NCBI GenBank assembly: GCA_965200245.1
Contig: CBDATS010000015.1
Span: 128,001 to 192,000 of the forward strand
From: a bacterium
GTDB lineage: Bacteria; UBA8248
Length of the DNA: 64,000 bases
Direction: 5' to 3'
A program made the translations under genes and the position numbers. Position 1 is the stretch's first letter; the number at the start of each line of letters is the position of its first letter. The notes under the pieces were generated by a model. That model saw only the letters and a list, made by a program, of their open reading frames with translations. It had not been told where the DNA came from and did not search any database. Below, piece after piece: positions 10,122-37,957 of this stretch.

Positions 10122-10142
10122 ATTTGCCATCGGAATAGAGTT

Positions 10143-10640: not shown

Positions 10641-10672
10641 AGTCAACTCTGTCCATCATGGAGGAGTAGTTC

Positions 10673-12022: not shown

Positions 12023-12037
12023 TGAAGGAATAAGTGT

Positions 12038-12601: not shown

Positions 12602-12680
12602 AGCAAGATATGTATCAGGTTTCATGTTGGGTTTGTTATTGATTGCGACGCGGATGTGAAGAATCTGCGGTGGAGGCTTT

Positions 12681-14939: not shown

Positions 14940-14972
14940 GTTGTTTTGTTACGTCATTGATATCTTTCCTCC

Positions 14973-15257
14973 ATGCCTTTTGTTGGTCTTTTGAAAATTG
15001 ATGTTCAGATTCCTGAATGCCACTCACTGAAGGCAAAACGTAAAATTGTTCAGTCTATCACTACACGCTTGCGTCAAAGGTTTAACGTATCTGTCGCTGA
15101 GGTCGATTTCCAGGATAAGTGGCAGAGGTGTCTTATCGGTGTGAGTTTTGTGAGTAATGATCGTCGATTTGTGGATAGCCAGCTCAGAAAAGTGCTTGAT
15201 TTTCTTGAGGGACTGGGCTTAAGCATAACATTGGATTTTTATATTGAGATTTTTTGA
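14973..15257 (+). CDS. ylxP: DUF503 (YlxP) family protein
   Basis: HSLKAKR...FNVSVAEVD.QDKWQR; conserved position between infB and rbfA. Confidence 0.9.
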   Translation: MPFVGLLKIDVQIPECHSLKAKRKIVQSITTRLRQRFNVSVAEVDFQDKWQRCLIGVSFVSNDRRFVDSQLRKVLDFLEGLGLSITLDFYIEIF

Positions 15258-15281
15258 AGTCTGTGGAGTGAAATTGTCAAT

Positions 15282-15635
15282 ATGAGCCATTCCCGAATGT
15301 TCCGTGTAGCAGAACTAATCCACTCAGAACTCGCGAATGTGATGATGAAAGAAGTGAAGGATCCACGTGTGCGACATGTTGTGATTACCCGGGTGGAGGT
15401 GGCCCCGGACTTGCGCATTGCGAAGGTTTACTTTAGCCGATACGGTGAAAATCAGGGAAATATCGAGGAGATGGAAGAAGGTTTTCAGGGCCTTGAGCGA
15501 GCAAGTGGATTCTTGCAAAGGAAACTTGCCGAACGTTTGCAATTGAAAAGCACGCCCAAGATAAAATTCTTCGTCGATCGGGGATTGGCATACAGTGCCG
15601 AAATCGAACGCTTGCTATCTGACGTGAGGAAATAA
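15282..15635 (+). CDS. rbfA: 30S ribosome-binding factor A
   Basis: RVAELI...VKDPRV...DLRIAKVY...TPKIKFFVD. Confidence 0.96.
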   Translation: MSHSRMFRVAELIHSELANVMMKEVKDPRVRHVVITRVEVAPDLRIAKVYFSRYGENQGNIEEMEEGFQGLERASGFLQRKLAERLQLKSTPKIKFFVDRGLAYSAEIERLLSDVRK

Positions 15636-15655
15636 GTTCGAGGAAGGATCAAATT

Positions 15656-16582
15656 TTGGAACTATCGGGCGTTTTGAATCTGAAGAAAAAGCATGGTCCC
15701 ACCTCACATGACATGGTTCATGCTGTGAGAACACTGCTTCCTGGAAAAGAAAAAGTGGGCCATGCAGGCACGCTTGATCCTTTGGCCGAAGGAGTGTTGC
15801 CGATTTGTATTGGTCATTCGACGAAATTGTTCTCATATTTTTTGGACTGCAAGAAATCGTACCAAGCTGTAATGTTGTTTGGGCGAGTGACGGATACCCA
15901 GGATATAACGGGAAAATTGCTGGCCGAAACTGAGCCGGGAGACATCTCGCTTTCTCAAGCCCAAGAGCTTCTGAATGCGTTTTTGGGAAAGACAGAGCAG
16001 ATGCCGCCAATGTATTCTGCATTAAAGACGAATGGCAAGCGGCTGCATGAACTGGCCCGCTCTGGCCAACAGGTTGAAAGAGAAAAACGGCTCATTGAGA
16101 TATATGGGATCAAGGCAATTGGAATAGATGGACCACAACTTAGCTTTGCTGTCACATGCTCCCGAGGCACATATATTCGATCTATTTGCCATGACGTCGG
16201 TGCAAATCAAGGGTCCGGTGGATGTTTGCAAGCGCTTACGCGTACCGCTTTGGGGCCATTCGATCTCTTGGATTCGGTTACTATTGAGGAGGTCGCACAT
16301 TACTCGAAAGAAAGACGCCTTCGAGAGATTCTGATGAGTCCGGCGCAGGCGCTCGCACATTTGCCTGCCATATATGTACGTCCGAGAGCGGAAGTGCGGG
16401 TATTGAATGGCGCTATGATTAGAATAGAGGATGTCCACCAAGTTCTTGATTTGCCGGTGGATACCCGTGTGCGAATGCTCAATGAACCGGGAGAGTTATT
16501 GGGAGTCGGAAAGATGATCGATGAAAATAAGCGCAAACTAAATCAGGGGTTTGTGGCGCCTGAAAAGGTATTTGTCACCTAG
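15656..16582 (+). CDS. truB: tRNA pseudouridine(55) synthase
   Basis: KVGHAGTLDPLAEG, PPMYSALK and CSRGTYIRS motifs. Confidence 0.97.
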   Translation: MELSGVLNLKKKHGPTSHDMVHAVRTLLPGKEKVGHAGTLDPLAEGVLPICIGHSTKLFSYFLDCKKSYQAVMLFGRVTDTQDITGKLLAETEPGDISLSQAQELLNAFLGKTEQMPPMYSALKTNGKRLHELARSGQQVEREKRLIEIYGIKAIGIDGPQLSFAVTCSRGTYIRSICHDVGANQGSGGCLQALTRTALGPFDLLDSVTIEEVAHYSKERRLREILMSPAQALAHLPAIYVRPRAEVRVLNGAMIRIEDVHQVLDLPVDTRVRMLNEPGELLGVGKMIDENKRKLNQGFVAPEKVFVT

Positions 16583-16612
16583 AATGAAGCGAGAATATGC
16601 ACTTGCACTATA

Positions 16613-16641
16613 TTTACATGGATTAAAAAGTCGTATAAAAT
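16613..16641 (+). promoter_or_regulatory. Sigma70-type promoter for rpsO-pnp
   Basis: TTTACA (16613-16618), 17 nt spacer, TAAAAT (16636-16641). Confidence 0.55.
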
Positions 16642-16720
16642 CCGCCCGTTTTTCTAATTAATGGGCAAATCGTGCTCAGTTGGGTAGAATAACCTATTTG
16701 TAGTGGAGGAAGTGACGGAA

Positions 16721-16990
16721 ATGCCCCTAGCGAAGGAGCGAAAATCTGAAGTTATCGAAAAATTTCGCACACATGACACCGATACTGGTTCACCAGAAGT
16801 TCAGGTAGCTATCCTTACCGAGCGTATTTCCTACCTCACCGACCATTTCAAGACCCACAAGAAAGATCATCATTCTCGAAGAGGTTTATTGAAACTCGTG
16901 GGTCAACGGCGTCGTCTCCTGGATTATTTGAGAGATAAGGACATCCACCGCTACCGCACGATTATTCAGGATCTCGGCCTGCGTCGCTAG
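16721..16990 (+). CDS. rpsO: 30S ribosomal protein S15
   Basis: [13 protein letters not shown]...[21 protein letters not shown]. Confidence 0.99.
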
Positions 16991-17022
16991 ATGTGGGTTT
17001 CGCCCCAGAGGGAAGTTATCTA

Positions 17023-19158
17023 ATGCCACCGTATCGTAAAGACATGTCTATCAATGGTTATACACTTGCTTTTGAAACAGGTGAGATAGCCAAGCAAGCC
17101 AGTGGCGCTGTCATGATGCATTATGGTGAAACCAGTGTTCTGTGCACGGCTTGCGCCTCGCATTCCCCCCGTGAGGGAGTGGATTTTTTCCCACTAACTG
17201 TCGATTACCGAGAATTTTTCTACGCGGCAGGAATCATCCCGGGAAATTTTTTTCGGCGCGAAGCCAAACCTGGCGAGAGAGAAACACTGACCTGCCGATT
17301 AATTGATAGGCCGATCCGTCCCCTTTTCCCCAAGGAATTTCGTTGTGAGACGATGATCCAGGTCATGGTCATGTCTTATGACAAATTGAACGATTCCGAC
17401 ATTCTGGCAATCAATGGAACCTCAGCCGCTCTCCACATTTCAGATATCCCTTTTGCCGGCCCTGTCGGTGCTGTCCGCGTCGGACGCCTTGAAGGTGAAA
17501 TTATCGTCAACCCAACGATCGAACAGCAAATTGACAGCGATCTGAACTGTGTGATGGCTGGAACATCAGACGCGATAGTGATGGTGGAAGCAGGCAGTTT
17601 TGAAGTTTCTGAAGATGTGTACATGGAAGCGTTTGAGAAAGGCCATGCTGTAATCAAGGAATTATGCGCCTTGCAAAATGAACTCAGGGTCGAATGTGGA
17701 AAACCCAAACGAGTCGTCGAGGCTGAAGAAGAAGATGCAGAATTGTTGGGCAAAGTGCGTGAAATTGTTGTGCCTAGATTAGAGGCAGCAGCTGAAATAC
17801 ACGATAAAGAGGGGCAATATGGCGCAATAGATGAGGCGAAAGCTGCTGCACTCGATTCTCTTTGCGCAGAGGAGGAAGGATCTCCTGCGAAAGGGGTCGT
17901 TTCTGATTATTTCAGCAAGATCGAAAAAGAGGTTTTCCGAGGTCTGATCCTGGATGAAGGAAAACGTTCAGACGGGCGGGGGCTTCGTGATGTCAGGCCG
18001 ATAACCATTAGAATGTCTCCACTGGCCAGGCCCCATGGCAGTGCATTGTTCACACGGGGTGAGACCCAGGCATTGGTGACTGTAACGCTAGGCACTGCTT
18101 CAGAAGCGCAGTTGATAGACACATTGGATGGCAAAGCCGACAGGACATTTTTGCTTCACTACAATTTCCCCGGATTTAGTGTTGGCGAAGCGAAACCGAA
18201 CCGTGGTCCCGGACGCCGCGAAATAGGCCACGGCGCTTTGGCTTCTCGGGCCGTCCAGGCGATTTTGCCTGAACAGGAAGAGTTTCCTTACGTGATCCGC
18301 GTGGTTTCGGATATCACGGAAAGCAACGGCAGTTCATCCATGGCGAGTATCTGCGGAGCTAGTTTGGCCTTGATGAATGCAGGAGTACCGATCACATCCC
18401 CGGTGGCCGGTATTGCCATGGGTTTGATTAGCGAAGAATCAACTGGAAGAACTGCAATACTTACCGATATCCTCGGATTGGAAGATCATTTGGGAGATAT
18501 GGATTTTAAGGTCGGTGGTACTCGTCATGGCATTACCGCCCTTCAGATGGATATCAAGATCAAAGGGTTGCAATTAGGTCTCGTAAGAGAGGCCTTGGCG
18601 CAGGCGAAAGACGCTCGAATGCATGTGCTTGATCAAATGGACAAGGTCATTTCCCAGCCAAGCGAGGAGATTTCACCTTATGCGCCGAGGATAATGACGA
18701 TGCAGGTTTCCAAGGACCGCGTGAGAGACGTGATAGGGCCGGGCGGGAAGGTGATTCGTGGAATTGTCGAGGAAACAGGTGCGGATGTAGATATTGAGGA
18801 TGACGGAACCATATTCATTTCATCTACGGAAGAGGCGGCTGCACTCAGGGCGATGGAGATAATTCGTGAACTTACTCAGGAAGCTGAGAAGGGAACGATT
18901 TACTACGGAACTGTCAGAAAAATCATGGATTTTGGAGCATTTATCGAAATATTCCCGGGAACGGATGGGCTTTGCCATATCAGCATGATCGCGAAGAAGA
19001 GAATTGGTTCAGCAAGTGACGTTCTGAAAGAAGGCCAGAAGGTTTTGGTAAAATGTATGGAAGTGGAAGGTAATGGGAGGATTCGGCTATCCATGAAAGA
19101 TGTGATAGAAGAAGAGTTGCCTGAAGAATGGAAACAATTCTATGCACCTGTGACTTGA
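17023..19158 (+). CDS. pnp: Polyribonucleotide nucleotidyltransferase (PNPase)
   Basis: DFFPLTVDY, RREIGHG, ESNGSSSMA and GDMDFKV motifs; KH and S1 domains. Confidence 0.99.
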   Translation: MPPYRKDMSINGYTLAFETGEIAKQASGAVMMHYGETSVLCTACASHSPREGVDFFPLTVDYREFFYAAGIIPGNFFRREAKPGERETLTCRLIDRPIRPLFPKEFRCETMIQVMVMSYDKLNDSDILAINGTSAALHISDIPFAGPVGAVRVGRLEGEIIVNPTIEQQIDSDLNCVMAGTSDAIVMVEAGSFEVSEDVYMEAFEKGHAVIKELCALQNELRVECGKPKRVVEAEEEDAELLGKVREIVVPRLEAAAEIHDKEGQYGAIDEAKAAALDSLCAEEEGSPAKGVVSDYFSKIEKEVFRGLILDEGKRSDGRGLRDVRPITIRMSPLARPHGSALFTRGETQALVTVTLGTASEAQLIDTLDGKADRTFLLHYNFPGFSVGEAKPNRGPGRREIGHGALASRAVQAILPEQEEFPYVIRVVSDITESNGSSSMASICGASLALMNAGVPITSPVAGIAMGLISEESTGRTAILTDILGLEDHLGDMDFKVGGTRHGITALQMDIKIKGLQLGLVREALAQAKDARMHVLDQMDKVISQPSEEISPYAPRIMTMQVSKDRVRDVIGPGGKVIRGIVEETGADVDIEDDGTIFISSTEEAAALRAMEIIRELTQEAEKGTIYYGTVRKIMDFGAFIEIFPGTDGLCHISMIAKKRIGSASDVLKEGQKVLVKCMEVEGNGRIRLSMKDVIEEELPEEWKQFYAPVT

Positions 19159-19181
19159 GAAAGTCAATTTTCGATGTGTGC

Positions 19182-19210
19182 GCCGGTCTCCCGGGAGGCC
19201 GGTTTTTCTT
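19182..19210 (+). terminator. Rho-independent terminator after pnp
   Basis: GCCGGTCTC-CCGG-GAGGCCGGT followed by TTTTCTT. Confidence 0.75.
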
Positions 19211-19291
19211 TGACTATAGAGCAGGTGGAGCGGCAAATCTATTGATGCCAATTGTCAGTAGTTACTTTTTCCGGAAATCCAGGGGGCGAAA

Positions 19292-20380
19292 ATGAACAGG
19301 AAATCTTTAGGTGTGGGTGTTGTGGGTTCCGGCAGAATAGGAACTTTGCGGGCGAATCTCGTTTCACGCCACCCATCTCTGGAGTTTTTGGCCGTCTCCG
19401 ACATCGATCAACATCGGGCGAAAGAATTGGGGTCTCAAGTTGACGCTCAACTCGCTACCGGCAGTAATGAAGAAGTTATTGAACACCCTGAAGTCACGAC
19501 AGTAATCGTGTCCACGCCCGAGCATGATCATGCCGATTCCATTATCCATGCCTTGGAATTAGGCAAACCCGTGTTGGTGGAAAAACCCATATCTCTGACT
19601 TTGGAGGATGCAGATCGCATACTCACAGTTGCTGAAAGGACGGGTACTGAACTCAGGGTAGGGTATGCCCAACGATTCAAACGTCGTTACCAGATGGCGA
19701 AAGAACAGATTGCCCAAGGAAGGCTGGGTGAAATTCTTGCCGGCACAGGCAGAACCTGCAACACCCGCGCCCAAGGACTACAGATACTGAAGCGCTCGCC
19801 TCACGCAACGCCCGTTCTCGATGTGCTCACGTATTGGGTGGATATGACCTGCTGGTTCTTGGAAGGTCATCGACCGGTTGAAGTGGTCGCCCGTGGAAAC
19901 GGGAAAATATATAAGGAACATGGTTATTCGGCGAACGACGTCACTTGGTCCATTGTTACGTTTGATAATGGAGCCGTGATGAATCTGGGTGTTTTTTATG
20001 CTTTGCCTGCAAAATATCCTGCTTTGGGACAGAGCGTGAGAATGGAGATTTATGGCACGGATGGCGTTTTAATGCTTGATGAAGACCACAAGGATGAGAT
20101 GCTGTACACCGATAAGGGAATTCCTCACACTTATATACCTGATCACCACATCAACACGGCATTTTTAAGCAGCACGACTCCAGGTGACTGGGCGGCGGGT
20201 GATTATTGGGGTCCGCTGGGTGATGAAACAAGAAGCTGGCTGGATCATGTCGTCAACGGGCGGCCAACTACGCACGCCACGGCTGAAGATGCGCGCCAAA
20301 CCCTGGAAGTGACGATAGCGATGGAATTGTCATCCCAAACGGGCGAGGCCGTGCGATTGCCATTGGGGGAAGGGCATTGA
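19292..20380 (+). CDS. Gfo/Idh/MocA family NAD(P)-dependent oxidoreductase
   Basis: VGVVGSGRIG Rossmann motif and VLVEKP motif. Confidence 0.88.
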   Translation: MNRKSLGVGVVGSGRIGTLRANLVSRHPSLEFLAVSDIDQHRAKELGSQVDAQLATGSNEEVIEHPEVTTVIVSTPEHDHADSIIHALELGKPVLVEKPISLTLEDADRILTVAERTGTELRVGYAQRFKRRYQMAKEQIAQGRLGEILAGTGRTCNTRAQGLQILKRSPHATPVLDVLTYWVDMTCWFLEGHRPVEVVARGNGKIYKEHGYSANDVTWSIVTFDNGAVMNLGVFYALPAKYPALGQSVRMEIYGTDGVLMLDEDHKDEMLYTDKGIPHTYIPDHHINTAFLSSTTPGDWAAGDYWGPLGDETRSWLDHVVNGRPTTHATAEDARQTLEVTIAMELSSQTGEAVRLPLGEGH

Positions 20381-20447
20381 AAGATTGTCACTTGCAACGA
20401 AAATGGCCCGAGGCTGTCGGGATATAGCCTGATTTGACATTCTTATT

Positions 20448-21263
20448 CTAGATGCGCATCAAGTCTTGTCCGAAAATAATCTTCCCATCAAAAAACCGCG
20501 TTACTTCTTCGATGGTTTTTTCTCTGGATGCCATGGGTGGCGTAAGATGAGACAATACAACTGTGTTTACATTCGCCTCTTTTGCCGTACGTCCAATTTC
20601 TTCTGTAGTCGCATGATGGCCAGCGATTATTTTCGCCATTTGCTCGGTTTGGTCTAGCATTTCCACTATAGATTCAGGAAGGCATGGATGCATCATCAAG
20701 ACATCCGCGTTTCTCGCGAATGAGGCGAGTTTTTCGTTTGGACTCCCGTCGCTTGCAATGACAATGCTTCTGCCTTCGGCTTCAAATCGATATGACAAGA
20801 TATCATCCACGTTTCCGTGCTCTGTGCATTTATCGGCGGAAACCCTCAGGTTTCCGATTTCAAACGATTCTCCCCTTGAAATGATGGTTGTCTGCAAGTC
20901 CAGACCCGCTCTTGGTTTGCCCTCTTTTGCGCGAAGTTCGATATCGTATTCATAGTAATGAAGCATACGTTCGACATGTTGTTCTACCGGAGTGGGACCA
21001 AAAACATGGAGTGTGTTCGATGCTCCAAATAACCAGCGCGTGATATAAAAATCCCCAAAACCGGTAAAATGGTCTGAATGAAAATGAGTGAATAACCGGT
21101 GGTTGACTGAGTGGATCTTGTATCCTGCAGACACGATTTGGCGGGGGACGTTCCTGCCGGCATCAATGAGATATAATCTGCCGCCAGATACAATTCCATT
21201 CGCGTGTCCGCTCGCTCCGGGATACGGTGGTGGTGAGCCTACTCCCAAGAGTATCAATTCCAT
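20448..21263 (-). CDS. Metallo-beta-lactamase fold hydrolase (RNase Z/arylsulfatase AtsA-like)
   Basis: MELILLGVGSP, LIDAG, THFHSDH (HxHxDH), H..TEEIG and VLSHL. Confidence 0.85.
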   Translation of the reverse strand: MELILLGVGSPPPYPGASGHANGIVSGGRLYLIDAGRNVPRQIVSAGYKIHSVNHRLFTHFHSDHFTGFGDFYITRWLFGASNTLHVFGPTPVEQHVERMLHYYEYDIELRAKEGKPRAGLDLQTTIISRGESFEIGNLRVSADKCTEHGNVDDILSYRFEAEGRSIVIASDGSPNEKLASFARNADVLMMHPCLPESIVEMLDQTEQMAKIIAGHHATTEEIGRTAKEANVNTVVLSHLTPPMASREKTIEEVTRFFDGKIIFGQDLMRI

Positions 21264-21319
21264 ATTGTGGGCCTTCAAGAACCAAGGGAAGAAAACCAGA
21301 ACCGAATGGAATCCCGAAT

Positions 21320-21360
21320 GCAAACCGGGCCCGACCGATGTTGATGGCGGGCCCGGTTGC
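21320..21360. terminator. GC-rich hairpin downstream of the TAXI gene
   Basis: AACCGGGCCCG...CGGGCCCGGTT inverted repeat just after the stop codon. Confidence 0.5.
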
Positions 21361-21366
21361 GTAAAT

Positions 21367-22353
21367 CTATTGAATACTCGCAGGAATTTTGTAACCTTTT
21401 TCCTTCCAATACCTTGCGGCCCCTGGGTGGATTTTCAGGCCGATAGCGGCCATCTGATCGAGAGCGGGGGCTACTTTGAATCCCGACACCCAACCGCGAT
21501 GTACCTTGGGTAAATATTCACGTCCCTGGTCTGAAAAGTTGATGCGCGCAACCTCATATCCTACTGATGGGGAAACGTGCGCTCCCACAACGGTCCAAGC
21601 GGTGTAGCCAACTGTGGAAACATCTTTGGTGACGCCGTTATATGAGCCAGCCGGAATGTTGATGTTGAAATAAGCCGGGCTGTCTTTCAGGAATTTTTCG
21701 AGCGTTGTACCTGTGATGGGCAATAGACGGATGGGAGCGGCGGCTGCAGCTTTGTAGAAAGCGGGCCCCGGTACGGGTAAGGGAATAGAGAATGCTTGAA
21801 TGCGATTATCCTTCATCGCGTCAGCCAATGCGCTAAAGGGCATATACTCCCGACGTACCTTGAGGCCGGCATGCTTAATCAGTCGGCTGGTCATGAAATG
21901 GGCGTTTCCGCCCTTTCTGCCGGAACTGATGGTTTTTCCGTTCAGATCATTTAAGGATTTGATGCCGGAACTTTGAAAGGTAGCCATCTGAAACATGGAG
22001 ACAGTGGCGGGGCCCATACCTCGAATATTGCGGTGTTTTTTCTTGTAGGGTTTTTTCCCGTTCAAGGCTCGAAGTACGAGACCCGCGACTCCAAGCCCGA
22101 ATTCTGCTTTTTTCCCTTCGATAAGACGGAGATCCTCTACGGCGCCACGAGTCGTCTTATTTGTCATTTTAACAGATTTTGAGTTTTGCGATACGAGATT
22201 GGCCAGACCTCCATACATCACGTAGATACTCGTGCCGGGACCGGAACCCACAACGGATACATGGGTAGGGGCTGCTGATGTATAGGAATTTGTAAGAAAT
22301 AGACATGAAATGAATATGGCAACGGTGATGGGTAAAGCTCGTACGATTTGCAT
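21367..22353 (-). CDS. TAXI-family TRAP transporter solute-binding protein
   Basis: Signal peptide, TTRGAVEDLRLI, SGIKSLNDLNGK and IHPGAARYWKEKG C-terminus. Confidence 0.9.
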   Translation of the reverse strand: MQIVRALPITVAIFISCLFLTNSYTSAAPTHVSVVGSGPGTSIYVMYGGLANLVSQNSKSVKMTNKTTRGAVEDLRLIEGKKAEFGLGVAGLVLRALNGKKPYKKKHRNIRGMGPATVSMFQMATFQSSGIKSLNDLNGKTISSGRKGGNAHFMTSRLIKHAGLKVRREYMPFSALADAMKDNRIQAFSIPLPVPGPAFYKAAAAAPIRLLPITGTTLEKFLKDSPAYFNINIPAGSYNGVTKDVSTVGYTAWTVVGAHVSPSVGYEVARINFSDQGREYLPKVHRGWVSGFKVAPALDQMAAIGLKIHPGAARYWKEKGYKIPASIQ

Positions 22354-22453
22354 TTTGACTCCTCAAAAAAGAAAAATACACACGAAAATTGATGAAAAAG
22401 GAATGGAGAGACAAGAAAACGGAGTCGGTTCACTCTCCGTTGCGTTCTTTCAT

Positions 22454-23455
22454 CTATACATTTTCTTTTAGGGCAGAGTAGTCCTCCGTATAGTTTGGAG
22501 CCGGGGTTGCCCCTTGTCCCTGAATAATGTGAATTTTGCCTTCCGTCCGGTCGGCATTCCGGAAACCTCGCTGAATACCAGTGGGCACCCAGCAAGCATC
22601 CCATGGTTCGAGAACGGCTTGGTGAATGTTTCCACGTTCATCTGCCCAGTAGACGACCCATCTGCCTTCTAGCGCGATAAAAAGTTCTTCGCAAGGGTGG
22701 TCATGTAGTGGCGCGCCTCTGCCATTGCCGCATTCCACCATAGCGTATCCGATCTCTCCCTCTGACAAAGAAGGCGGTGGGCCTTCATCCGTATCACCGG
22801 AAACGCCACCGATATAGCGCCTCAGCGAACGAACCCCCTCGGGCAATTTCGCTTCGTGATATACGTTCCAATTGCGTGGACATTCCTCGAAACGCACCAA
22901 TTGCGTGGCTGGGTCGTAAGCGGGTTGGTTGACGTAAGGTTCGGTGCGAACCCCTTCGGGCAAACGTGCCTGTAGCGATTCGGGGTAGACGGGATATTGG
23001 TAGTCGCCTTGTCCATGGATGAAGTGCAAGAATCCATCATCCTTTCCGACATTTTTGAACCCGCGCATCACACCCGAAGGAACGCGGACAAGATCATATT
23101 TGCCCAGCACGACGTTTTGCAACGCTTTGAATTCGAAATCTTCCCAGAAAATCTCGAATTCTCCTTCCCAGACCATGAAAATCTCTTCATCTGGGTGGTC
23201 GTGAAGAGGTGCGCCATTTTGAGGTGGAGTCATTACGACCCCACAAGTAAATTCCCACCCAGGAAGAGGAGAGCGAAGATTTTGACCGGAAATGCCGCCA
23301 ATGTATCGGTAGATCGCACGATGATTCCCCTCGATATGTGATTCGTGATATTCCCCCCAATCTGGAATCAATTCTCCGAAGCGAATGACTGTAACTGGCG
23401 CTACGGTTGTCTTTGGTTTGGGAGTTTGATGGGTTAAATTATTGGAAATATTCAC
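22454..23455 (-). CDS. Bicupin (tandem cupin domain) protein
   Basis: Two copies of GAPLHDHPxEE(I/L)F...VP(S/T)G..RGF.N. Confidence 0.8.
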   Translation of the reverse strand: MNISNNLTHQTPKPKTTVAPVTVIRFGELIPDWGEYHESHIEGNHRAIYRYIGGISGQNLRSPLPGWEFTCGVVMTPPQNGAPLHDHPDEEIFMVWEGEFEIFWEDFEFKALQNVVLGKYDLVRVPSGVMRGFKNVGKDDGFLHFIHGQGDYQYPVYPESLQARLPEGVRTEPYVNQPAYDPATQLVRFEECPRNWNVYHEAKLPEGVRSLRRYIGGVSGDTDEGPPPSLSEGEIGYAMVECGNGRGAPLHDHPCEELFIALEGRWVVYWADERGNIHQAVLEPWDACWVPTGIQRGFRNADRTEGKIHIIQGQGATPAPNYTEDYSALKENV

Positions 23456-23769
23456 TTTTTGTTCCCCTTTGGATAGTGATCATTACTATCTCACGAACCC
23501 CATGTTTGCTGAAATTAGTGATTGAGATAATTATGCTATCACTATCATAGATGTATTTCTATCTCTTGATATTGGGGGGATTTTGAAAAATGGTTTTTGG
23601 ATTTTGGGAGCATCTCACGATTCCAGGGAATAGAATATTCGCAATAATCTTCGTCGTTTGGGCGATTCTCCCGTATTCAGCGTTTGCCCAGCCTAGCGAT
23701 ATCGTGTTTGTGAACGGAAAAGTATTAACGGTCGATACGAACTTTTCTACACATCAGGCAGTGGCCGTT

Positions 23770-24983
23770 GGTGAAGTCCTAAACTTGCTGGATAAACAGG
23801 AGGGGTGCATCCTCGGCAGAGGCATCACACAGGCATGCCGGTGAGAGGCCGGTATCTAACCGAGGAGGCACCCCATGCAGAAGAGAATACAGGCATCCAT
23901 GCAGACCCGCCAGGCCCTGCACGCCCTGATCGAAGGTCGTCTGTCGAGTCGCGATGCGCGAGCCGACCTGGTGAAGCTGGCCACACGACTCATCGTGGAA
24001 GAAGCGCTGGAGGCGGAGAGCCGCGACGCTCTGGGCCGGGCGTACTACGAGCATGGAGCGAAGCCCGGCCAGGGCTATCGCAACGGCCAACGTCGGGGTC
24101 GTCTGAAGACGGCGGAAGGGTTCATCGAGTACGCGCCGCCTCAGATCGCCGGGCGCGAGGAAGGGTTCCACCCGGAGATCCGGGCGGGCCTCAAGGGGCG
24201 CACCGAGGCGTTAGAGGGATTGGCGGTGGAACTCCTGGCGCGCGGCCTGTCGGTACGGGACATCGAAGACGTCTTTACCGACGGGAGCGGTCGCCTTCTG
24301 CTCTCGCGCACGGCGGTCTCCGAACTCGGGGAGCGGCTCTGGGAAGACTGCCAGGAGTTCGCGTCACGGGACCTGGGCGAGTAGGAGGTCGTCTATCTGT
24401 TCATCGACGGGATTGCGGAACGTATCCACCCGGGGAGCAGGCGCGAGCCGGTACTGGCGGCCTGGGGGTTCACGGCGAACGGCGCGAAGGTGCTGCTCCA
24501 CCTGATGGCGGGTTCGAAGGAGGACACCGAAACGGGGAGCGCGTTCTTCCATGACATGCGCGCCCGCGGCCTGGGCGACCCGCTGCTGGTGGTCAGCGAC
24601 GGGGCGCCGGGCATCATCAAGGCGATCGAGACGTGCTTCCGCGATGACTTCGAGGCCTGCATCGCGCACCTGCGAGTGCCGATTAACCACCGCCGTGGCG
24701 TGTGCACGACGAACCTGCTCGAGCGGTTGTTCGTCGAGGAGCGCCGGCGGATGAAGATAATCCCCAATGCCTTCGGGGAGAAGGCCGTACGCAAGCTCAT
24801 GTGCGCCGCCATGCTCCGGGCTTCCGAGCGATGGCGGGCGCTCAGGGTCACCGGCTTCGAACGGCGCCAGATGGACGCCCTGAGAAAGGAACTGGACCAG
24901 AACTACAAGGAGGATAACGACATCAGGCAGCCCTCAGCCGGTGTGCGCCAGAAGAAATTATCCAGCATCTACAGGACTTGACC
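23770..24983 (+). mobile_element. IS256-family insertion sequence (defective)
   Basis: Imperfect 26 bp terminal inverted repeats (GGTGAAGTCCTAAACTTGCTGGATAA / GGTCAAGTCCTGTAGATGCTGGATAA, 21/26 identical). 9 bp duplication GTGGCCGTT at 23761-23769 and 24984-24992. GC is higher than the flanks. Confidence 0.92.
23875..24981 (+). pseudogene. IS256-family transposase with an internal stop and an apparent deletion
   Basis: YRNG...R.LKT, GLSVRDI, YLFIDG, LVVSDGAPG and TTNLLERLF motifs. TAG at 24382-24384. The QRC..H segment expected after AIETCF is absent. Confidence 0.85.
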
Positions 24984-26713
24984 GTGGCCGTTCAGGGCGA
25001 ACGCATAATATCTGTGGGGAATACGGCCCGGATAAGAAAGCTGATAGGCTCCAATACAAAAGTCATTGATTTGCAAGGCAAAACGCTGATTCCAGGCTTG
25101 ATCGATAATCATGTTCATTTCATCCGCCATGCGTTGCGCTGGGATCATGAAACAAGAATCGACGGAGTCACCTCACGGAAAAAGGCGCTTTCCATCATCT
25201 CCACAAAAGCGAAATCAATGAAACACGGAGAGTGGGTGCTCATCATTGGGGGATGGAGTCCCGACCAGTTTCACGATAAGCCGGAATTGTTCACAAAAGC
25301 GGAATTGGACAGGGCTTCTCCGAATAATCCGGTTTTCATCCAGCAAGCTTATCGGTTCATGATTCTGAACAGTATGGCCCTGAAGAAGGTTGGTATTGAT
25401 GAGAATTCAGAAGATCCGAGAGGATGGCGAATAGTCAGAAACGAATCCGGCGCTCCTGCGGGTGTTATTTATGGACGTCGGGCTATTTTTCGATTCTGGC
25501 GGCGTGAACTGCCAAAAGTTACGGACGACAAATAATATCAGGTCTAAAGAAACTTATGACGGACTTCAATCGTGCTGGTGTGACGAGTTTATTAGAATTG
25601 GGTGGTGGCGGAGTTCGAGATGCGACTTACAAGATGATCAAGCAAAGATTGGCTGGAAACAACGGTCTCACAATACGGATTTTTCACACACCTCGTTTCC
25701 GGGCTCGAACTCCAGAGAGAAACAAGCGAGTGATAACGCGAATTCGTAACTCCCGCCCTGATAAATCCGCGAAGATGATGGGCAATATAGCACTTGGTGA
25801 GCATATGTATGCGCCACTCCACGATTCGCTGTTCAGACCCTCCCGTTATCCGGATGAGGATTATGACGAATTCAGAAAAGTATCTGAGGTGGCCGCGGAT
25901 GTGGGATGGACGATTCACGAACATGCTTTTCGCGATACCACGATCACGAGATATCTGGACATCTTCGAGAAAATAAACAGGAAAAGGGAAATTACGAATC
26001 TGCGCTGGTCGATTCATCACGCGGATTTCATTTCTCACAGAAACATCAAGCGTGCCAAAAGGCTCGGGATGACTTTTGCCCTGCACAGTAAAATGACGAT
26101 TCTAGGTTCCGCGTTGAGACGACGATACGGAAAACGCGCTCTCTCGCTCCCGCCTTTGCGTACGGTTCAAAATAGCGGTGTTATATGGGGGCTCGGCACG
26201 GATGCTGGCGTAGTAGCTCCATATCCACCAATGCTCACCCTCTGGTGGGCCGTGACAGGCAAGGATCTGGGTGGGGAGATAGCACTCTCAGAGACAGAAA
26301 CTATTTCCAGAAAAAACGCGCTTATCGCTCATACGAGGTCAAATGCATACCTGCTTTTCAAGGAGAATGAGCTAGGTTCGATTGAAAAGGGTAAATTAGC
26401 TGATTTGGTCGTTCTTGATCGTGATTATATGACTGTTCCCGAAGAGCAAATCAAGGACATCAAGCCCTTGCTCACGATGATCGGGGGAAGGGTGGTGTTC
26501 CGATCTGGAATATGAATTTCGGGGAATTACAAACAAGAGTAATCAAAGAACTGCTAGGTTTTTCCAAGCCAGGTGGCTTTTCCTGCAGAACTTGCTAGTG
26601 CCTCCTGAAACAAGAGATTGAATTTGATGGCAAGAACCGGATAGATAACTCTGGGTATTGTAGTTACATTATGAGCAAATGTGTAATGGCGATATCCATT
26701 CGGAGGCAGAAAG

Positions 26714-32481: not shown

Positions 32482-33688
32482 GTTCAAAAGCCTCTCGCCA
32501 TGCGGTCTTCTGCTCCAGATACCTATCTGCCGTATCACACCTGATACAGAGGGCTGTACCAAGTGAGTCCCGACCGAGCCGCATTCAGGAAGCGTATCTA
32601 ATTGTGTAACACAATAGGTTAAGATGGACTGTCCTGCCTTTGCGGCCTTGCGTGCGGGTTGGGGAGCGGCGAATCTTCCTGCTGCGCTGCCACGGGCCGA
32701 TTGTGCGACGCGAGTATTCCTTGAGGATCTCACATCGAACAGGCCTGCATCTTATGGGTCGGCATCCCGGACGAAGCCGGGCTGCCCGCGGCCTTCGTAC
32801 CACCGCCTGCGCCACACACGTGGACGTCACAGGGCGTCATGAGCGTGTCGGGCTCATAACCGTCGGGCGCTTGGCCAGGAGACAGGAAGCGAGAGACCAC
32901 CATCTGTGCCCATCTCGACGATGCTGTTCTCAAGGACGCCGCAGAGGGTACGGGATCCGAGACGCCGGACTATGCGAAATGCGGCGTAGCACTGAGAGCC
33001 ACTTAAGAAAGCGGTATACCGATAAGGCATGTCGGCATCGGTGAGTCGATGGAAAATTTCATGGATTTTGAGCCGATGCTTTCATCAAGGCCGTATGTGG
33101 GGAATAATCTACCCAGAGTCCCATTATTGATGATGATATTGTGAAACACCCTTGCTTATCAACTAAATCTGTCAGAAATTATTTTCAGGAATTTATCTGA
33201 AAGGTCGTGGATTAAAATAAATTTAGCGGATTTTCAGGAAACTTCCTCAGCCCCGAACGAGTCGATTCTCTCCACTGCCATCCCCGCTTTCTCCTATTCT
33301 CCCAGCACCGTAAATGCGGGAAATTGCCTGTGATGTTCCGGGCCGATGATTCTGTTTCGACCGTAGAAGTTTGGGCCTGCGCGTCTTGGGGGATGACTCA
33401 ACAGTGAAACACGCCAATCCTTCACGATACTTTTGGGCGCTTCGTTTCTCACTACGGCAATTGCGTATAACGCATTTGTGATGCTGGTGGACGAAGACGA
33501 CCGCAGAGGGACTGTTGATGAAGCCTGATTCCGTGCTAGAATAATGTCTTATTTCCTTAGGTTGGATTCAGCGATAATACGAGGTGCCGGGAAAAGAGGG
33601 TCGTGGCCAGTTCTCCGTGGGAACATTTCCCGGCACGTATTCTGAATTGTCTTATTGCGCTGGCAAAACTTAGCTAGGCATCAACCCA

Positions 33689-34279
33689 ATGAAGCCTGCC
33701 ATTTTGAAAGTAGAAGAATCTAGCATGAGAAAATTACTCCAGAATTACAAGCCCCAAGTAATTCTCAAGATAGCCATTTTATTGCCGGCTGCGTTGTTTC
33801 TGATTTACGACCTGATCACCGATGCAAGTTTGGGGGAGGAGTTCGCCTCTACGCATTTTATTATCGAATCGGTTGTATTCTTCTTTGTACTGACCGTCCT
33901 CATTATCAGTTTACGGGATATTGCCAACTTGCGAACGCAACTACAGCAAGAGGAGAGACGAAACAAAATGCTCGCCGGTGAACTAGCCGCTGTCATCGAA
34001 GAACAGATGAGTGAGTGGAAGTTGACCCCCAGCGAAAGAAAAATCGCATGTATGATAGTCAAAGGTTACCGATTTGCCGAAATTGCTGAACTGCGCCAAG
34101 TGAAGGAAAACACTACTCGGTTGCAAGCTACCGCTCTCCACGCAAAGGCTGGCGTGAACGGGCGTGCCGAATTTGTCGCCAAGATCATCCATCACTTACT
34201 AGCCCCCGTCTTGGAAGATACTTCTTCCGACAAGAACCGCCCCACCGTCCCGACTGGCCCAGGCGGTATCTCATCCTAG
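33689..34279 (+). CDS. Membrane-anchored LuxR-family HTH transcriptional regulator
   Basis: Two hydrophobic helices, then WKLTPSERKIA...KGYRFAEIAELRQVKENT...AKAGVNGRAEF. The start may be the ATG at 33725. Confidence 0.85.
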   Translation: MKPAILKVEESSMRKLLQNYKPQVILKIAILLPAALFLIYDLITDASLGEEFASTHFIIESVVFFFVLTVLIISLRDIANLRTQLQQEERRNKMLAGELAAVIEEQMSEWKLTPSERKIACMIVKGYRFAEIAELRQVKENTTRLQATALHAKAGVNGRAEFVAKIIHHLLAPVLEDTSSDKNRPTVPTGPGGISS

Positions 34280-34324
34280 AAAATATCAGGTGGCAACACG
34301 AGGGCAATTCTGAGTTGGGGGTTA

Positions 34325-34789
34325 TTACTGACCAATACGGAAAGCCCTGCCTTTACCTTTTACCCAAAGGGCCGCACGGCGCAGCATGCGTAGCCATGGG
34401 CAGAGGATGCGTACGAGTCTTGGATTCGAAGAAAACCATCTTACGAGAATATTGAACCAGTCGTCTCCGCTCGTCATCGCCTCAAGCACCATCATTGCTT
34501 CCGCTCCCTGATGCCGCTGGCCATCCAGGACAAGAATCATCCCATCCTCAATGTCGTATCCTTCCCGTCGCAGTTTGTTGGCCAGTTCGGTCGCCCGATT
34601 GGTGTCAATGAGCCGCAATGGCCGCCCGGTTTGCATCTCGAACCTCGATTTTCTCACGTAGAGACTGCAAAAGGGGCATTCGTCGTCATAAAGCAGAAAG
34701 TCATCTTGCGGGGATACGTCGACGGTTTCGGTTCGGTCGGTTTCTTGTGAATGTGAAGTCGTCAACGCATCTTCTCGTTCCATACTCAT
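34325..34789 (-). CDS. DCC1-like thiol-disulfide oxidoreductase (DUF393)
   Basis: LLYDDECPFC (DxxCxxC), then GYDIEDGMIL...GAEAM and a hydrophobic/basic tail. Confidence 0.85.
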   Translation of the reverse strand: MSMEREDALTTSHSQETDRTETVDVSPQDDFLLYDDECPFCSLYVRKSRFEMQTGRPLRLIDTNRATELANKLRREGYDIEDGMILVLDGQRHQGAEAMMVLEAMTSGDDWFNILVRWFSSNPRLVRILCPWLRMLRRAALWVKGKGRAFRIGQ

Positions 34790-34927
34790 GTTTATTTTCC
34801 AAAGAATGTCGCATCACGCACGCACAGCCTGCTTTTCAGCAATCGGGCGAAATCAGTCGAGCCCGTGACGGCGATGAGGATTGTATCAGCCTGTCCATTT
34901 CCATGAGAGCGAAGTTATTCAGTATTC

Positions 34928-36325
34928 TCACTGGCCGAAAATAAGTCTCGTGTGCGAAATCACTTTTTTCTTGCCCCTGCGCCTCTCATGAAGAGGTACC
35001 TTTAGGGGCTTGATCCATTTTTGGGGCCAAATCGACCGAGGCACATTCAAGAGGTTGACATCGGGATCGATCAGGCGTTGTCGCCGCCGGCCGTTCAAGG
35101 ATACCTTGGAGTCGACGCGAATCGAGACCACCTTTATTCCTTCCGCCCGCAACCGGTCGCCCAAATAGTAGACGAATTGATGAATCATGTCCGGTCTGGC
35201 GGCCATTTTCTTCGCCTGCCAAGATTTGATGTAGCGGGCGGGGGATATTTTATACTCGTTTCCCGCCTCGTCGGTGACGAGAAATCTCGCCCGACCGGAT
35301 TTGCTGCGAAGCTTCATGTGCCAGGCGTAGAGATGCCCCTCTTCGGTCCAACTCACATTGCCAGGATAGAGCCAGTGCCTAAGTGGCATCAATAGTTGCC
35401 AGGAAATATAAACCACGAGGAATGCAAGCACGGTTCGTGAACAACGACTCGGGCCGGGAGGTGTTGCCGCCTGATATTTTTTCAGGATGAGATATCGCCT
35501 TGGCCAGTTGGGACTGAAGAACACCGTTGAGAGGGCAATGGCGAACCAGGGAAAAATTCCGATATGAAAGATGACGGCGTTGGTGAGATTAAAAAACAGT
35601 ACGCCGACGAACGCGATAACCCTCGTTCGCTTCCACATCAGGAGCGGCACGATGAGGAGGTCGAAGAACAGACCCCCGTAGTTCATGAGCATGACGACCA
35701 ATTCCTGTTTGAACAGGGGGCCGATCAACGGATAATCCGCGCGTTTATGCAACCAGCTTCTTAACGGTTCCCCGGCTAGCCAGTCGGAATTGATCTTGGC
35801 GACTCCGCCGTAGAAATAGGCGATGCCCACCTGTAAGCGCAGGATCCACAGACTCCATGTGGGGATGGTATCCGCTCCCTTGCAGAACCCAAACTTCGCA
35901 TCCAGTGAAACGGCCCGATTCGCCGGAACGATCGCCATTAGGAAGCTCACTAGGCAAACGAGATAAAAATGATTCAGGTAGCGCGCCTGCTCAAGCAGAA
36001 AGATGTAGCTGAAACCGACGAAGAAAAGTGCAGCGGCTACGCGATAGAACAAACCGAAGGTAATGAATAAGGCAAGAACACCCAATCCCAGGAAATGCCA
36101 ATACATTCCGTCGCCAGGCCAAGGAGCGACCCAATCGAACCCGAAGTAGCTAAAATGGAAGTCCGGCGCGATCCAATATTTATGGATCCAACCCTTCTTG
36201 AAATACCGTGCGACTTCCCACAGCATGATCAGCCCGAAAAAAATCCGGACAACCACCAACGAGGCGATATCAAGGGGCTCTGCAAGCCGTTCACGCAACT
36301 CCCCGACCATTTGTTTTGTGCTCAT
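34928..36325 (-). CDS. HTTM-domain vitamin K-dependent gamma-carboxylase homologue
   Basis: Multi-pass HTTM region (LVVVRIFFG, YLNHFYL, SLDA, YFYGGVAKINSDWL, IGIFPW) plus a soluble domain (WTEEGHLYAWHMKL, SLNGRRRQRLIDPDVNL). Confidence 0.9.
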   Translation of the reverse strand: MSTKQMVGELRERLAEPLDIASLVVVRIFFGLIMLWEVARYFKKGWIHKYWIAPDFHFSYFGFDWVAPWPGDGMYWHFLGLGVLALFITFGLFYRVAAALFFVGFSYIFLLEQARYLNHFYLVCLVSFLMAIVPANRAVSLDAKFGFCKGADTIPTWSLWILRLQVGIAYFYGGVAKINSDWLAGEPLRSWLHKRADYPLIGPLFKQELVVMLMNYGGLFFDLLIVPLLMWKRTRVIAFVGVLFFNLTNAVIFHIGIFPWFAIALSTVFFSPNWPRRYLILKKYQAATPPGPSRCSRTVLAFLVVYISWQLLMPLRHWLYPGNVSWTEEGHLYAWHMKLRSKSGRARFLVTDEAGNEYKISPARYIKSWQAKKMAARPDMIHQFVYYLGDRLRAEGIKVVSIRVDSKVSLNGRRRQRLIDPDVNLLNVPRSIWPQKWIKPLKVPLHERRRGKKKVISHTRLIFGQ

Positions 36326-36486
36326 TCCGCGTTCCTCGAACAAGCCTCAAAGTTTTTCATCAGGTTTACGTAAGTTATGCCATGAAATGGCTAAATCCAA
36401 TGGATTGAACACGGGGTGCCTCTATGTGTGTTAACTGTCTAGGAGGCATATTGAATTTAACGCTTCTCATTCTTTGGCATTCGGAT

Positions 36487-37763
36487 TTATGGTGTGCGTT
36501 TGGCTCCGAATACGCCGAGGAGGCTCTGCAGGTTGTCCGCGGTGTTGGCCCTGAAGGTGCCCGCCACCGAACCGGGATGGTCCGTGGGGTCGGAGTGGTT
36601 GCCGAAGAACTTCCCGCCCCACTTGCCCGAGAGCGCGACGCCAGCACCCGTCTCTCCGCTGGTGTCGCCGTCGAAGTTCCCCCCGAGGACGCTGCCGGTG
36701 ACGTCCGCAGATCCCAAGGTCAACGCGGGCAGGGACACGCCCCCATCCGTCCTGCCTCCCGTGATCGTCCCGGAGACGGTTCCCAGTGCAGTCGCGTCCC
36801 CGAAGTTGGCTGTCAGCTCAGCAGTCGCATCGAAATAATCGAACACGGGGTCCGCGTTCGCATCCGCCTTCATCATGTGCACGCCGGTCGCGGGCCCACT
36901 GTAGGTCGCCGTGCCCGTAAGGGCGGCGAGGTTGCCGTTCTCGAAGGGATCGTTGCCGCCCGCCGCAGCGCCCAGGGTGTAGGAACCAGTATAGCTGCCA
37001 TCCTCGGGGTCCTTGTAAATGAACAGCACAAACCCAGCGAGAGATAGTCCGTGTCCGAGTTGCCCTGGCTGTCCGTGTAGGCGTCCCAATTGAAAACGCC
37101 GTTTGTCTTGTCGTTGTGGACTTCAACTCCCTGCCAGCCCAATGCCAGGTCGTCCACCCTTCTCGACGACGCGCCCTGATCCGTCGTGCTCATGGTCGAG
37201 ACCGTGCCGGCGATGCTGCGCTTGAAGGTGAACTGCAGGCCCGCGCTCGCGTCGCGCTCGGCGAGGAAATACGAGGGGTCAGAAACCCTCCCGCCGGGGA
37301 CGTAAGAGGATTGCGTAGTGCTGCTCATCTCCTTCGAGGTGGGCGTGAACCCCAGAGGCCGTGAACTCCCGGCTCTCAGAATGCGTACCGCAGCGCCTCC
37401 CGCCAGACCCGCGTTCTCTCTGACTTCCTTCAGCAACGACCCTCTCAAGGGTGGAGTAGGCGGACCGCCTCCGTCGTCATCGTCGTCGCTGTCGTTATCG
37501 TTGTCGTCGTCATCACCGTCATCATCATCGTCGTCAAAAGGTGTAGGTACAGGCGGAGGCGCCGGATGCGGAGGTGACAGTGTAGGCGGGTTTATGTTTG
37601 TGTAGTCAAGCATAGTGGCGGGCATGACAACGACTCTTGTACTTCTACCGCCACCGTAACCCCAAGTAATGGAAAAAAGCACAAACAACGAGACTGCTAA
37701 GACGAAAACTGAAATTTTCGATTTCGTAAGCAATCGGCACTCACTAGAACTCGGATCAATCAT
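36487..37763 (-). pseudogene. Transferrin-binding protein B-like surface (lipo)protein with a Pro/Asp-rich linker; single frameshift
   Basis: Hydrophobic leader, Asp tract, then DYLSLGL(W)LF with one G missing near 37027. This joins GTATYSGPATG...AELTANF...G.WGGKFFG...PGSVAGTF...GVFGAKR, a TbpB-type barrel. Confidence 0.75.
37473..37535 (-). repeat. Low-complexity GAC/GAT tract encoding DDDDDDGDDDDNDNDSDDDDD
   Basis: Read directly: 17 Asp in 21 codons, flanked by Pro-rich segments. Confidence 0.95.
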
Positions 37764-37957
37764 TTCGTCGTCTATATCCTATATCCACGGGATCTTCTCT
37801 GAGATTGGGCTTTTCTTATAATCTCGCCCCCATAGCTATCATAAGAAGTTGTGAACACACCATCTTTGGTTTGCTATATATTGCTTATGCAAACGTTATA
37901 ATTGACGGTCCTGATTTTACGGAGCGCAATGCTGGAGGTTAGAGGAGGTGACTGCCG

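Follow-up and report, generated by a model that had tools for sequence, protein, structure and literature searches.

A stretch of bacterial DNA from the lineage UBA8248 (assembly GCA_965200245.1, contig CBDATS010000015.1, positions 128,001 to 192,000; 64,000 nucleotides, hereafter the window) carries four neighbouring genes, which encode a membrane enzyme of the vitamin K-dependent gamma-carboxylase (VKGC) family that includes human GGCX, a TbpB-like protein with an Asp-rich tract, a DCC1-like thiol-disulfide oxidoreductase (DUF393), and a membrane-anchored LuxR-like regulator (Table 1). Poly-Asp tracts recur beside enzymes of this family in widely scattered lineages. Judged from these neighbourhoods, a functional link between VKGC-like enzymes and Asp tracts appears well supported, and the tract-bearing protein is probably the substrate of the enzyme or its direct partner. 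The reading that we favour, with a rough probability of 0.4, is an enzyme–target module in which the VKGC-type enzyme would act on the exported poly-Asp protein and, by analogy with GGCX, carboxylate its aspartates. Within this reading the choice of Asp carboxylation as the chemistry is tentative, and the metal binding that the modified tract might then acquire is likewise suggested by the analogy.

The evidence that carries the link comes from gene neighbourhoods. In the source genome, a 3.68-Mb metagenome-assembled genome of 15 contigs (95.8% complete, 8.1% contaminated), six-frame translation yields a single in-frame run of at least six Asp and a single stretch with at least 14 Asp or Glu in 20 residues. 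Both are the window tract, which lies about 1.1 kb from the only HTTM gene of that genome, that of the window enzyme. The wider survey covered 157 loci, 80 of them from species-representative genomes (which gave 547 confirmed hits) and 77 from metagenomes (537 confirmed hits); each was taken with up to 7 kb on either side, 1.535 Mb in all. Open reading frames (ORFs) were called crudely, six Asp codons were sought as the DNA pattern GAYx6, and lineages were defined as the 88 clusters of enzymes at 70% identity. The pattern forms 31 site clusters in 28 of the 157 loci. An in-frame run of at least six Asp within an ORF of at least 60 residues is present in 27 loci, corresponding to 21 of the 88 lineages and at least 12 phyla, and relaxing the threshold to at least 10 Asp in 20 residues gives 32 ORFs in 30 loci, two of them regarded as spurious. 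No more than 500 nt separate the poly-Asp ORF from the enzyme gene in 16 loci, and also in L016, L026 and L029. The initial annotation had set beforehand, as a check, that acidic exported proteins and DUF393 proteins should recur beside homologous enzymes, and the survey bears this out in 21 of the 88 lineages for poly-Asp and in four for DCC1. No published account of a link between VKGC and poly-Asp was found in the literature searched, with most subscription journals outside its reach.

Were poly-Asp tracts simply ordinary acidic spacers of exported proteins, their position near the enzyme would be coincidental and the neighbourhood meaningless. We regard this as very improbable. Coincidence would be helped by genomes such as G053 and G054, which each hold 8–10 other sites. 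The background was taken from 38 whole genomes, not a random sample, which comprise 23 of the genus, ten with neighbour-positive loci and five with neighbour-negative loci. Away from HTTM genes these hold 7 + 13 + 9 + 26 = 55 clusters in about 184 Mb, or 0.30 per Mb (genome sizes rounded), against about 20 per Mb at the enzyme loci, a density about 67 times that of the whole genomes. The loci would accordingly be expected to hold about 0.46 clusters (about 2.7 if the density of the richest single genome applied), whereas 31 are seen. In G000 and G001 the sole poly-Asp site adjoins the sole HTTM gene, the two being 3 kb apart in the 3.4 Mb of G001. On a FastTree phylogeny of 154 enzymes, the 34 positive rows require at least 20 state changes, compared with a mean of 30.6 and a minimum of 25 for shuffled labels, so that the trait is partly inherited yet widely scattered; the positive rows of named origin belong to 12 phyla, one of them archaeal (Nitrososphaerota). 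We note in addition a large multi-tract poly-Asp site in G046, the genome of L027 (C1:4516300-4516731), which lies 1.6 Mb from the VKGC-like gene and may be either a candidate unlinked target or a sign of enzyme-independent tracts.

The distribution within the genus also argues against coincidence, as enzyme and poly-Asp sites are present or absent together. Four of the 23 genomes have the lumenal domain of the enzyme (PF22777), each with large multi-hit GAYx6 clusters beside the gene. Among the other 19, 15 are without any GAYx6 site and four have six short site clusters between them. DNA homology of the window with the related loci L002, L003 and L004 (genomes) and L083 (a metagenome contig) is limited to positions 33726–37536. 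The flanks of L002 and L003 are alike and those of L004 and of the window are each different, which gives at least three genomic contexts; in G019 and G025, 450–520 kb separate the cluster from the counterpart of the window's OsmC-ADH flank. Homologues of the LuxR-like gene occur only in these four cluster-bearing relatives, and the gene is inverted in L003. No tRNA gene that might mark an island border is present in the window between 30 and 41 kb. By these comparisons the four genes travel together, as a single transferable accessory module of this uncultured bacterium.

The carriers of the tracts are unrelated exported proteins which, by Pfam assignment and inspection, have only the tract and export in common (Table 1). 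Most begin with a signal peptide, a lipobox or an N-terminal membrane helix, as judged by eye for all except L005 and L025 (no clear start) and L077, L104 and L153 (cut by contig ends), and the tracts are thus predicted to lie in the same compartment that the soluble domain of the enzyme faces. In L016, L029, L077, L132 and L056 the poly-Asp stretch is a tail that forms the C-terminal end of the protein encoded just upstream of the enzyme gene, and such tail endings also occur in L141, L133/L135, L108, L005 and L079. In L009 and L072 the poly-Asp stretch is in the head of the protein. Likeness in tract and export alone is the pattern expected of a modification site or a recognition element. 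The tracts are made of Asp, not Glu, and are mixed only in L091; no Gla-like partner, that is, no Glu-rich (Gla-domain) substrate with a propeptide, was seen in the loci. Three candidate ORFs are regarded as spurious or doubtful: the first ORF of L063, which is rich in Lys, Glu and Arg, has no signal and looks unrelated; a minus-strand poly-Asp ORF in L029 that overlaps the enzyme gene; and an 83-residue poly-Asp ORF in L010. Among the carriers, pseudopilins and TadE/TadG-like proteins have 10–16 consecutive Asp within 1–3.5 kb of the VKGC-like gene.

The enzyme is a full homologue of GGCX, with an HTTM domain and a soluble domain, as the initial annotation had it. Both domains score far above their profile cut-offs: HTTM (PF05090) with E = 6.6e-89 and 298.4 bits against 27.7, over positions 2–259 of 259, and VKGC_lumenal_dom (PF22777) with E = 1.4e-45 and 155.3 bits against 27.7, over residues 303–448. 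The sole matches among all PDB sequences are those of human GGCX (8 distinct sequences, E = 2.3e-43, query residues 20–459). An AlphaFold2 model made from a 23-row alignment has a predicted local distance difference test score (pLDDT) of 80.2, with residues 324–345 below 50. All 16 of its Foldseek hits at E <= 1e-3 are GGCX, with template-modelling scores on the query (TMq) of 0.64–0.80, and the comparison with GGCX that had been proposed as a check gives a fold match at 0.78–0.80. At 471 residues the window enzyme is shorter than GGCX (758 residues), and its activity is predicted from homology.

Residue roles were taken from the accessible parts of PMC12647623 and bioRxiv 10.1101/2025.02.09.637231 and mapped on the GGCX alignment, with conservation judged over 23 sequences. 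The counterparts of Lys218 (K183 in the window enzyme), Asp263 (D228), Asn159 (N124), His160 (H125), Trp223 (W188), Phe286 (F251), Phe299 (F264), Trp399 (W341) and Met401 (M343) are invariant, and those of Phe294 (F259) and Arg436 (K379, a conservative change) nearly so. The catalytic His, the catalytic Lys and the substrate-site segment that had been matched by eye align accordingly (H125 with His160, K183 with Lys218, W341 with Trp399). In the Glu pocket formed in GGCX by Asn159, His160 and Tyr395, the first two are kept and Tyr395 is replaced by H337, next to Leu394, which is replaced by G336; both replacements are invariant in the bacterial family. In addition, Lys217 is replaced by A182 and Asn158 by L123. 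By the alignment, the machinery for quinol and CO2 is intact, with a systematic difference in one wall of the substrate-carboxylate pocket.

Asp carboxylation is the most economical chemistry for such an enzyme, which has kept its CO2 site but has a changed Glu pocket, and for which MloH sets a precedent. As cited in other papers, MloH (Law et al. 2018, Nat Catal) is a bacterial VKGC orthologue of the malonomycin pathway that carboxylates an aspartyl unit and thus provides a case of Asp in place of Glu. Compared by description, MloH differs in acting within a biosynthetic gene cluster on a polyketide–peptide intermediate, at the alpha position, whereas the candidate substrate in the window is a ribosomally made, exported protein with a homopolymeric tract. 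The likeness to GGCX extends, beyond the domain architecture and the quinol- and CO2-site residues, to a candidate target whose acidic residues cluster on the non-cytoplasmic side of the membrane. The differences lie in the linked tracts, which are of Asp rather than Glu, in the absence of a recognised Gla domain or propeptide-like element, and in the candidate redox partner, which is a DCC1-like protein and not VKOR.

A related but improbable account would keep the tract as the substrate and change the reaction, to epimerisation, exchange or cross-linking on Asp, or would make the enzyme a quinol epoxidase gated by the tract. It draws on the exchange of Lys217, the residue of substrate-activated coupling, for Ala182, a counterpart of which is lacking also in the full-length Leptospira orthologue according to the accessible part of bioRxiv 10.1101/2025.02.09.637231; on the invariant His in place of Tyr395 in the Glu pocket; and on HTTM-only relatives, which serve peptide maturation systems with no assigned chemistry (bioRxiv 10.64898/2026.08.19.745780). 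Against it, the CO2-stacking Phe299 (F264) together with Trp223 (W188) and His160 (H125) is invariant, the CO2-capture residues are conserved in bacterial orthologues (PMC12647623, in the part available), and MloH, as described, does carboxylate.

Other approaches to the enzyme–tract pair gave little. A prediction of the complex between the enzyme and the Asp-tract segment, made without control runs, returned ipSAE interface scores of 0.02 and 0.01, where 0.32 is the mark, and counts neither for nor against the pairing. A search that scored 8000 candidates gave 4225 VKGC-like proteins at E <= 1e-3. No run of at least five Asp occurs in 120 hits of similar length. In a search for fusions of enzyme and substrate, only two longer VKGC-like proteins were found (859 and 867 residues), both without an Asp tract; so low a number of long forms is weak evidence.

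The presumed target gene is broken in this genome. A 1-base deletion in a Trp codon splits the TbpB-like gene, and the base is kept in all eight homologous modules of relatives. A 7.9-kb contig from another study (X3) spans positions 35665–37900 with one substitution and zero indels; the frameshift is therefore real and not a slip of the assembly. Run X1 contains an identical copy of this stretch and may be its source. The two TbpB-like ORFs, of which the second (200 residues, minus strand, 36487–37089) overlaps the first, are one gene split by a genuine 1-base deletion, and the first ORF consequently yields only the part with the anchor and the Asp tract. Of the secreted TbpB-like protein with a Pro-flanked 17-Asp tract that the initial annotation described, the tract, the signal-anchor and the barrel profile stand. 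As for its proposed role as partner of the enzyme, it is the Asp tract that is conserved and not the barrel, since the exported proteins that carry the tract at other loci are unrelated.

The barrel itself is recognised by profile. The second ORF matches TbpB_B_D (PF01298) with E = 2e-7 and 32 bits against a cut-off of 26, the homologue in L004 does so with E = 4.3e-11 and 43.9 bits, and the window module is 74–80% identical to the eight modules of relatives. A structural model of the module, made from an 8-row alignment, has a pLDDT of 34.5 and is unusable for judging the eight-stranded barrel fold. In having a C-terminal module above the Pfam barrel cut-off the protein resembles TbpB and the Slam-dependent surface lipoproteins. 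It differs from them in that no lipobox Cys follows the hydrophobic signal segment in the translation, the score for the NCBIfam equivalog slam_lipo (NF041636) is far short of the cut-off (28.4 bits against 80), and no Slam or TonB-receptor gene is present among the neighbours scanned. In the relatives (L002, L003, L004 and L083) the target protein is 926–995 residues long, with three to six Asp tracts and two barrel modules, compared with a single tract and a single module in the window copy. A conserved motif, GSLLKEV...LA.GAA..I..AG..RPLG (window 37308–37430), stands after the last Asp tract and before each barrel module in the relatives, and could be a docking element.

It is conceivable, though in our view rather doubtful, that the whole module is decaying in this strain, the target being a pseudogene and the cluster no longer at work; such decay would be compatible with any of the other readings. 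Its signs would be the deletion, seen in two independent assemblies, the reduction to one module and one tract from the two modules and three to six tracts of the relatives, and a 53-nt inverted copy of enzyme-gene sequence beyond DCC1 that is found in the window only. Against these stand the intact ORFs of the enzyme, DCC1 and LuxR, and the first TbpB-like ORF, from which anchor and tract can still be made. Two RNA libraries contain contigs that match positions 33600–34631, 34105–34463 and 37071–37540 with zero differences and so cover the LuxR/DCC1 region and part of that ORF. This hints only weakly at expression, because DNA can occur in such libraries, and positions outside these contigs carry no information on it. 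The runs X3 and X4, which carry this DNA, are labelled as sponge metagenomes. A second X3 contig (4057 nt, depth 60) and a contig from the RNA library X6 (1096 nt, depth 12) match the DNA of the Asp tract at 37503–37536 with 3 mismatches each, and the sponge community therefore holds other, more abundant poly-Asp genes.

The DCC1-like protein was correctly described as a DxxCxxC protein of DUF393, with a PF04134 match of E = 1.2e-6 (30.1 bits against a cut-off of 27.8) and an N-terminal D-D-E-C-P-F-C in its translation. DCC1-like genes lie immediately beside the enzyme in 4 of the 88 lineages, which are the window's own clade, L035, L109/L110 and L125. These were found by a regular expression for the motif, which may undercount, and then confirmed by Pfam in L035 (E = 2e-32), L109 (E = 4e-10) and L125 (E = 4e-15), with L110 assigned by motif only; a motif match in L123 was not confirmed by Pfam and was dropped. 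A local iterative search of the loci with hidden Markov models found nothing beyond the own clade. A DCC1 remnant is fused to the N-terminus of the enzyme in P0078. The accessible part of bioRxiv 10.64898/2026.08.19.745780 describes an HTTM–DCC1 fusion predicted to pair with a DUF5819 protein. This fusion, like the HTTM proteins of the SdpB/SdpA type and of linaridin pathways, resembles the window system in tying an HTTM enzyme to a DCC1-like oxidoreductase. As far as described there, however, those proteins have the HTTM domain alone, a clamp domain supplied by the separate DUF5819 protein, and small-peptide partners, whereas the window enzyme has a fused lumenal domain, a separate DCC1 gene and a poly-Asp partner.

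The cofactor of the window enzyme would be menaquinone, two genes of the MqnA/MqnD type (the futalosine route) being present in the genome. There is no match to VKOR (PF07884) in the 95.8%-complete genome, which has two DCC1-like genes, the second one elsewhere. DCC1 belongs to a family other than VKOR, and the VKOR-like recycling role that the initial annotation gave it is therefore one of analogy only; as a thiol-dependent quinone recycler it is a reasonable candidate, if an uncertain one.

The fourth gene introduces signalling. The two-helix LuxR regulator of the initial annotation is upheld in its two hydrophobic segments and its convergent position, and its helix-turn-helix assignment is weak, with a GerE match (PF00196) below the cut-off (E = 0.0044, 17.1 bits against 23.5). 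Further matches are to DUF3685 (E = 1.7e-4) and to the NCBIfam family LIC13292_fam (E = 1e-13, at 51.8 bits against a cut-off of 200). Elsewhere in the survey, genes for an OmpR-type response regulator and a histidine kinase immediately precede that of the enzyme in L005, L034 and L044, in what looks like an operon, and lie nearby in L077. In L056 (5086–6979) a gene for an extracytoplasmic function (ECF) sigma factor is followed by one for an anti-sigma-like LysM membrane protein with a C-terminal (DDDDLY)n tail, which ends 10 nt before the VKGC-like gene.

Such arrangements would suit an envelope-sensing module, in which the poly-Asp protein would not be a substrate and would serve as a periplasmic cation- or regulator-binding partner of membrane signal transducers, with the enzyme a co-regulated output or one that acts on a lipid, a small molecule or a quinone. 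Besides the kinase pairs and the anti-sigma-like carrier, this account can call on the conservation of the membrane LuxR in the own clade, on the PepSY-type domains of two carriers (L056 and L094), and on DbfQ, a periplasmic protein that controls a kinase (PMC12714742, in the part available). We nonetheless consider it unlikely. A regulator is absent between or beside most poly-Asp/HTTM pairs, the carriers share the Asp tract alone, as is expected of a modification site, and the retention of every residue for quinol deprotonation and CO2 handling is hard to explain without a carboxylation-type substrate.

In the favoured enzyme–target module, the steps would run as follows. The soluble domain of the enzyme would face the periplasm, with the tract of the membrane-anchored target in the same compartment. 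The enzyme would bind menaquinol, which Lys183 would deprotonate and O2 would turn into a strong base; this base would take a proton from the beta-carbon of an Asp of the tract, and CO2 would then be added. The product would be beta-carboxyaspartate, with a malonate-type side chain, which would let the tract chelate Ca2+ or other cations much more strongly. On the other side, the DCC1-like CxxC protein of the cytoplasm would provide reducing power from thiols, so that the oxidised quinone (epoxide or quinone) could be used again, and the two-helix LuxR-like protein would control the module.

Several observations weigh against this module. The target gene is frameshifted in the very genome under study. 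In the survey, 130 of the 157 loci (about 80%) have no run of at least six Asp in the flanks examined, the five neighbour-negative genomes carry poly-Asp sites only elsewhere, and G053 and G054 are rich in sites (about 1.5–1.7 per Mb), so that an Asp tract can exist without this enzyme. In the pocket, an invariant acidic residue, E334, and a nearly invariant one, E335, are odd for the entry of a polyanion unless bridged by a cation, and no statement on the pocket geometry is possible because H337 lies in the poorly modelled active-site loop 324–345. The Leptospira orthologue, in work from 2005 attributed to Rishavy et al., reportedly epoxidised vitamin K without carboxylating a Glu peptide, and no protein substrate is said to have been proposed; Asp tracts were apparently not among the substrates tried with it. 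DCC1 adjacency is confined to few lineages, and the window protein, having no signal peptide, would be on the cytoplasmic side, whereas VKOR acts on the other face. Finally, the signalling genes in the clusters (kinase pairs, ECF sigma and anti-sigma factors, membrane LuxR) fit a sensing module equally well.

The four genes lie where the initial annotation had placed them, the ORF listing and the profile searches being in agreement (Table 1).

Table 1. Features of the window cluster, and of surveyed loci with poly-Asp carriers or signalling genes (positions in the window or, where a locus is named, in that locus)
Feature	Position or locus	Strand	Remarks
LuxR/GerE-like regulator, membrane-anchored, putative C-terminal helix-turn-helix	33689..34279	+	196-aa ORF, two hydrophobic segments; convergent with DCC1 gene
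DCC1-like (DUF393) thiol-disulfide oxidoreductase	34325..34789	-	154 aa; PF04134; DxxCxxC motif; no signal peptide by eye
VKGC/GGCX-type membrane enzyme	34928..36343	-	471 aa; HTTM plus lumenal (here periplasmic) domain
TbpB_B_D-type beta-barrel module, second reading frame	36487..37032	-	PF01298; C-terminal GAKRTP
TbpB-like gene, first ORF	36873..37763	-	296 aa: signal-anchor, Pro-rich flanks, Asp tract, GSLLKEV...RPLG helix-like motif, Ser/Thr-rich handle; out of frame past the deletion
Frameshift site	37030..37037	-	Trp codon one base short compared with eight homologous modules of relatives
Poly-Asp tract	37467..37541	-	17 Asp in 21 residues, GAC and GAT codons mixed
Pseudopilin/Tad poly-Asp carriers	L006 3139-4203; L082 1013-2065; L133 5197-5808; L135 5233-5808; L099 4992-6983		
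Carriers with prepilin methylation motifs (pseudopilin)	L006, L082		Pfam
Carriers with TadE/Tad	L133, L099		Pfam
Carriers with type IX secretion system sorting tails	L009, L072		Pfam
Carriers with SLH	L015, L108		Pfam
Carriers with DUF5666	L025, L056		Pfam
Carrier with PepSY	L056		Pfam
Carrier with LysM, on anti-sigma-like protein	L056		Pfam
Carrier with M23 plus SLT	L091		Pfam
Carrier with Ig/MBG	L104		Pfam
Carrier with DUF4382	L073		Pfam
Response regulator and histidine kinase beside VKGC-like gene	L005 5196-6978; L034 329-2481; L044 4813-6998; L077 1602-3692		

An inverted copy of about 53 nt (86–95% complementary) relates window positions 34247–34299 to the enzyme-gene segment 35461–35514. 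It lies just past the DCC1 stop codon, overlaps the last LuxR codons and is absent from L002, L003 and L004; a read-through transcript of DCC1 and the enzyme could self-pair over 1.2 kb through these two segments. L002 has instead a different palindrome of 57 nt between DCC1 and LuxR. Away from the cluster, the window ORFs at 24978–25535 and 25556–26515 cover two parts of one Amidohydro_3 profile, its first 141 positions and its last 308, and are probably a single amidohydrolase gene broken by a stop codon or a frameshift. The guanine-plus-cytosine content is 0.45–0.50 at window positions 10001–24000, compared with 0.54–0.61 elsewhere in the window, and this region may be a second foreign island; around the four-gene module (32–36 kb) the content is slightly low, at 0.51–0.53.

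Bacteria in their thousands, and some archaea, have full-length VKGC homologues, and we know of no natural protein substrate for any of these. In the accessible parts of the literature consulted, the only assigned function cited for such homologues is that of MloH in an antibiotic pathway. The pairing of enzyme and poly-Asp tract therefore offers a candidate protein target for the bacterial VKGC family, one that is directly testable. A bolder and rather speculative generalisation is that full-length bacterial and some archaeal VKGC orthologues might be menaquinone-dependent aspartyl carboxylases of poly-Asp tracts and C-terminal tails, making beta-carboxyaspartate, with DCC1 as the missing quinone-regenerating partner. 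If it is true, vitamin K-dependent carboxylation would extend from Glu in animals to Asp in microbes, and the puzzle of poly-Asp tracts on the surface proteins of microbes would be solved at least in part. It would bear on cation binding and mineral handling by symbionts of sponges and in other habitats, and would amount to a new CO2-fixing protein chemistry: a modification of proteins that is widespread, has so far gone unseen, and creates surfaces that bind cations very strongly.

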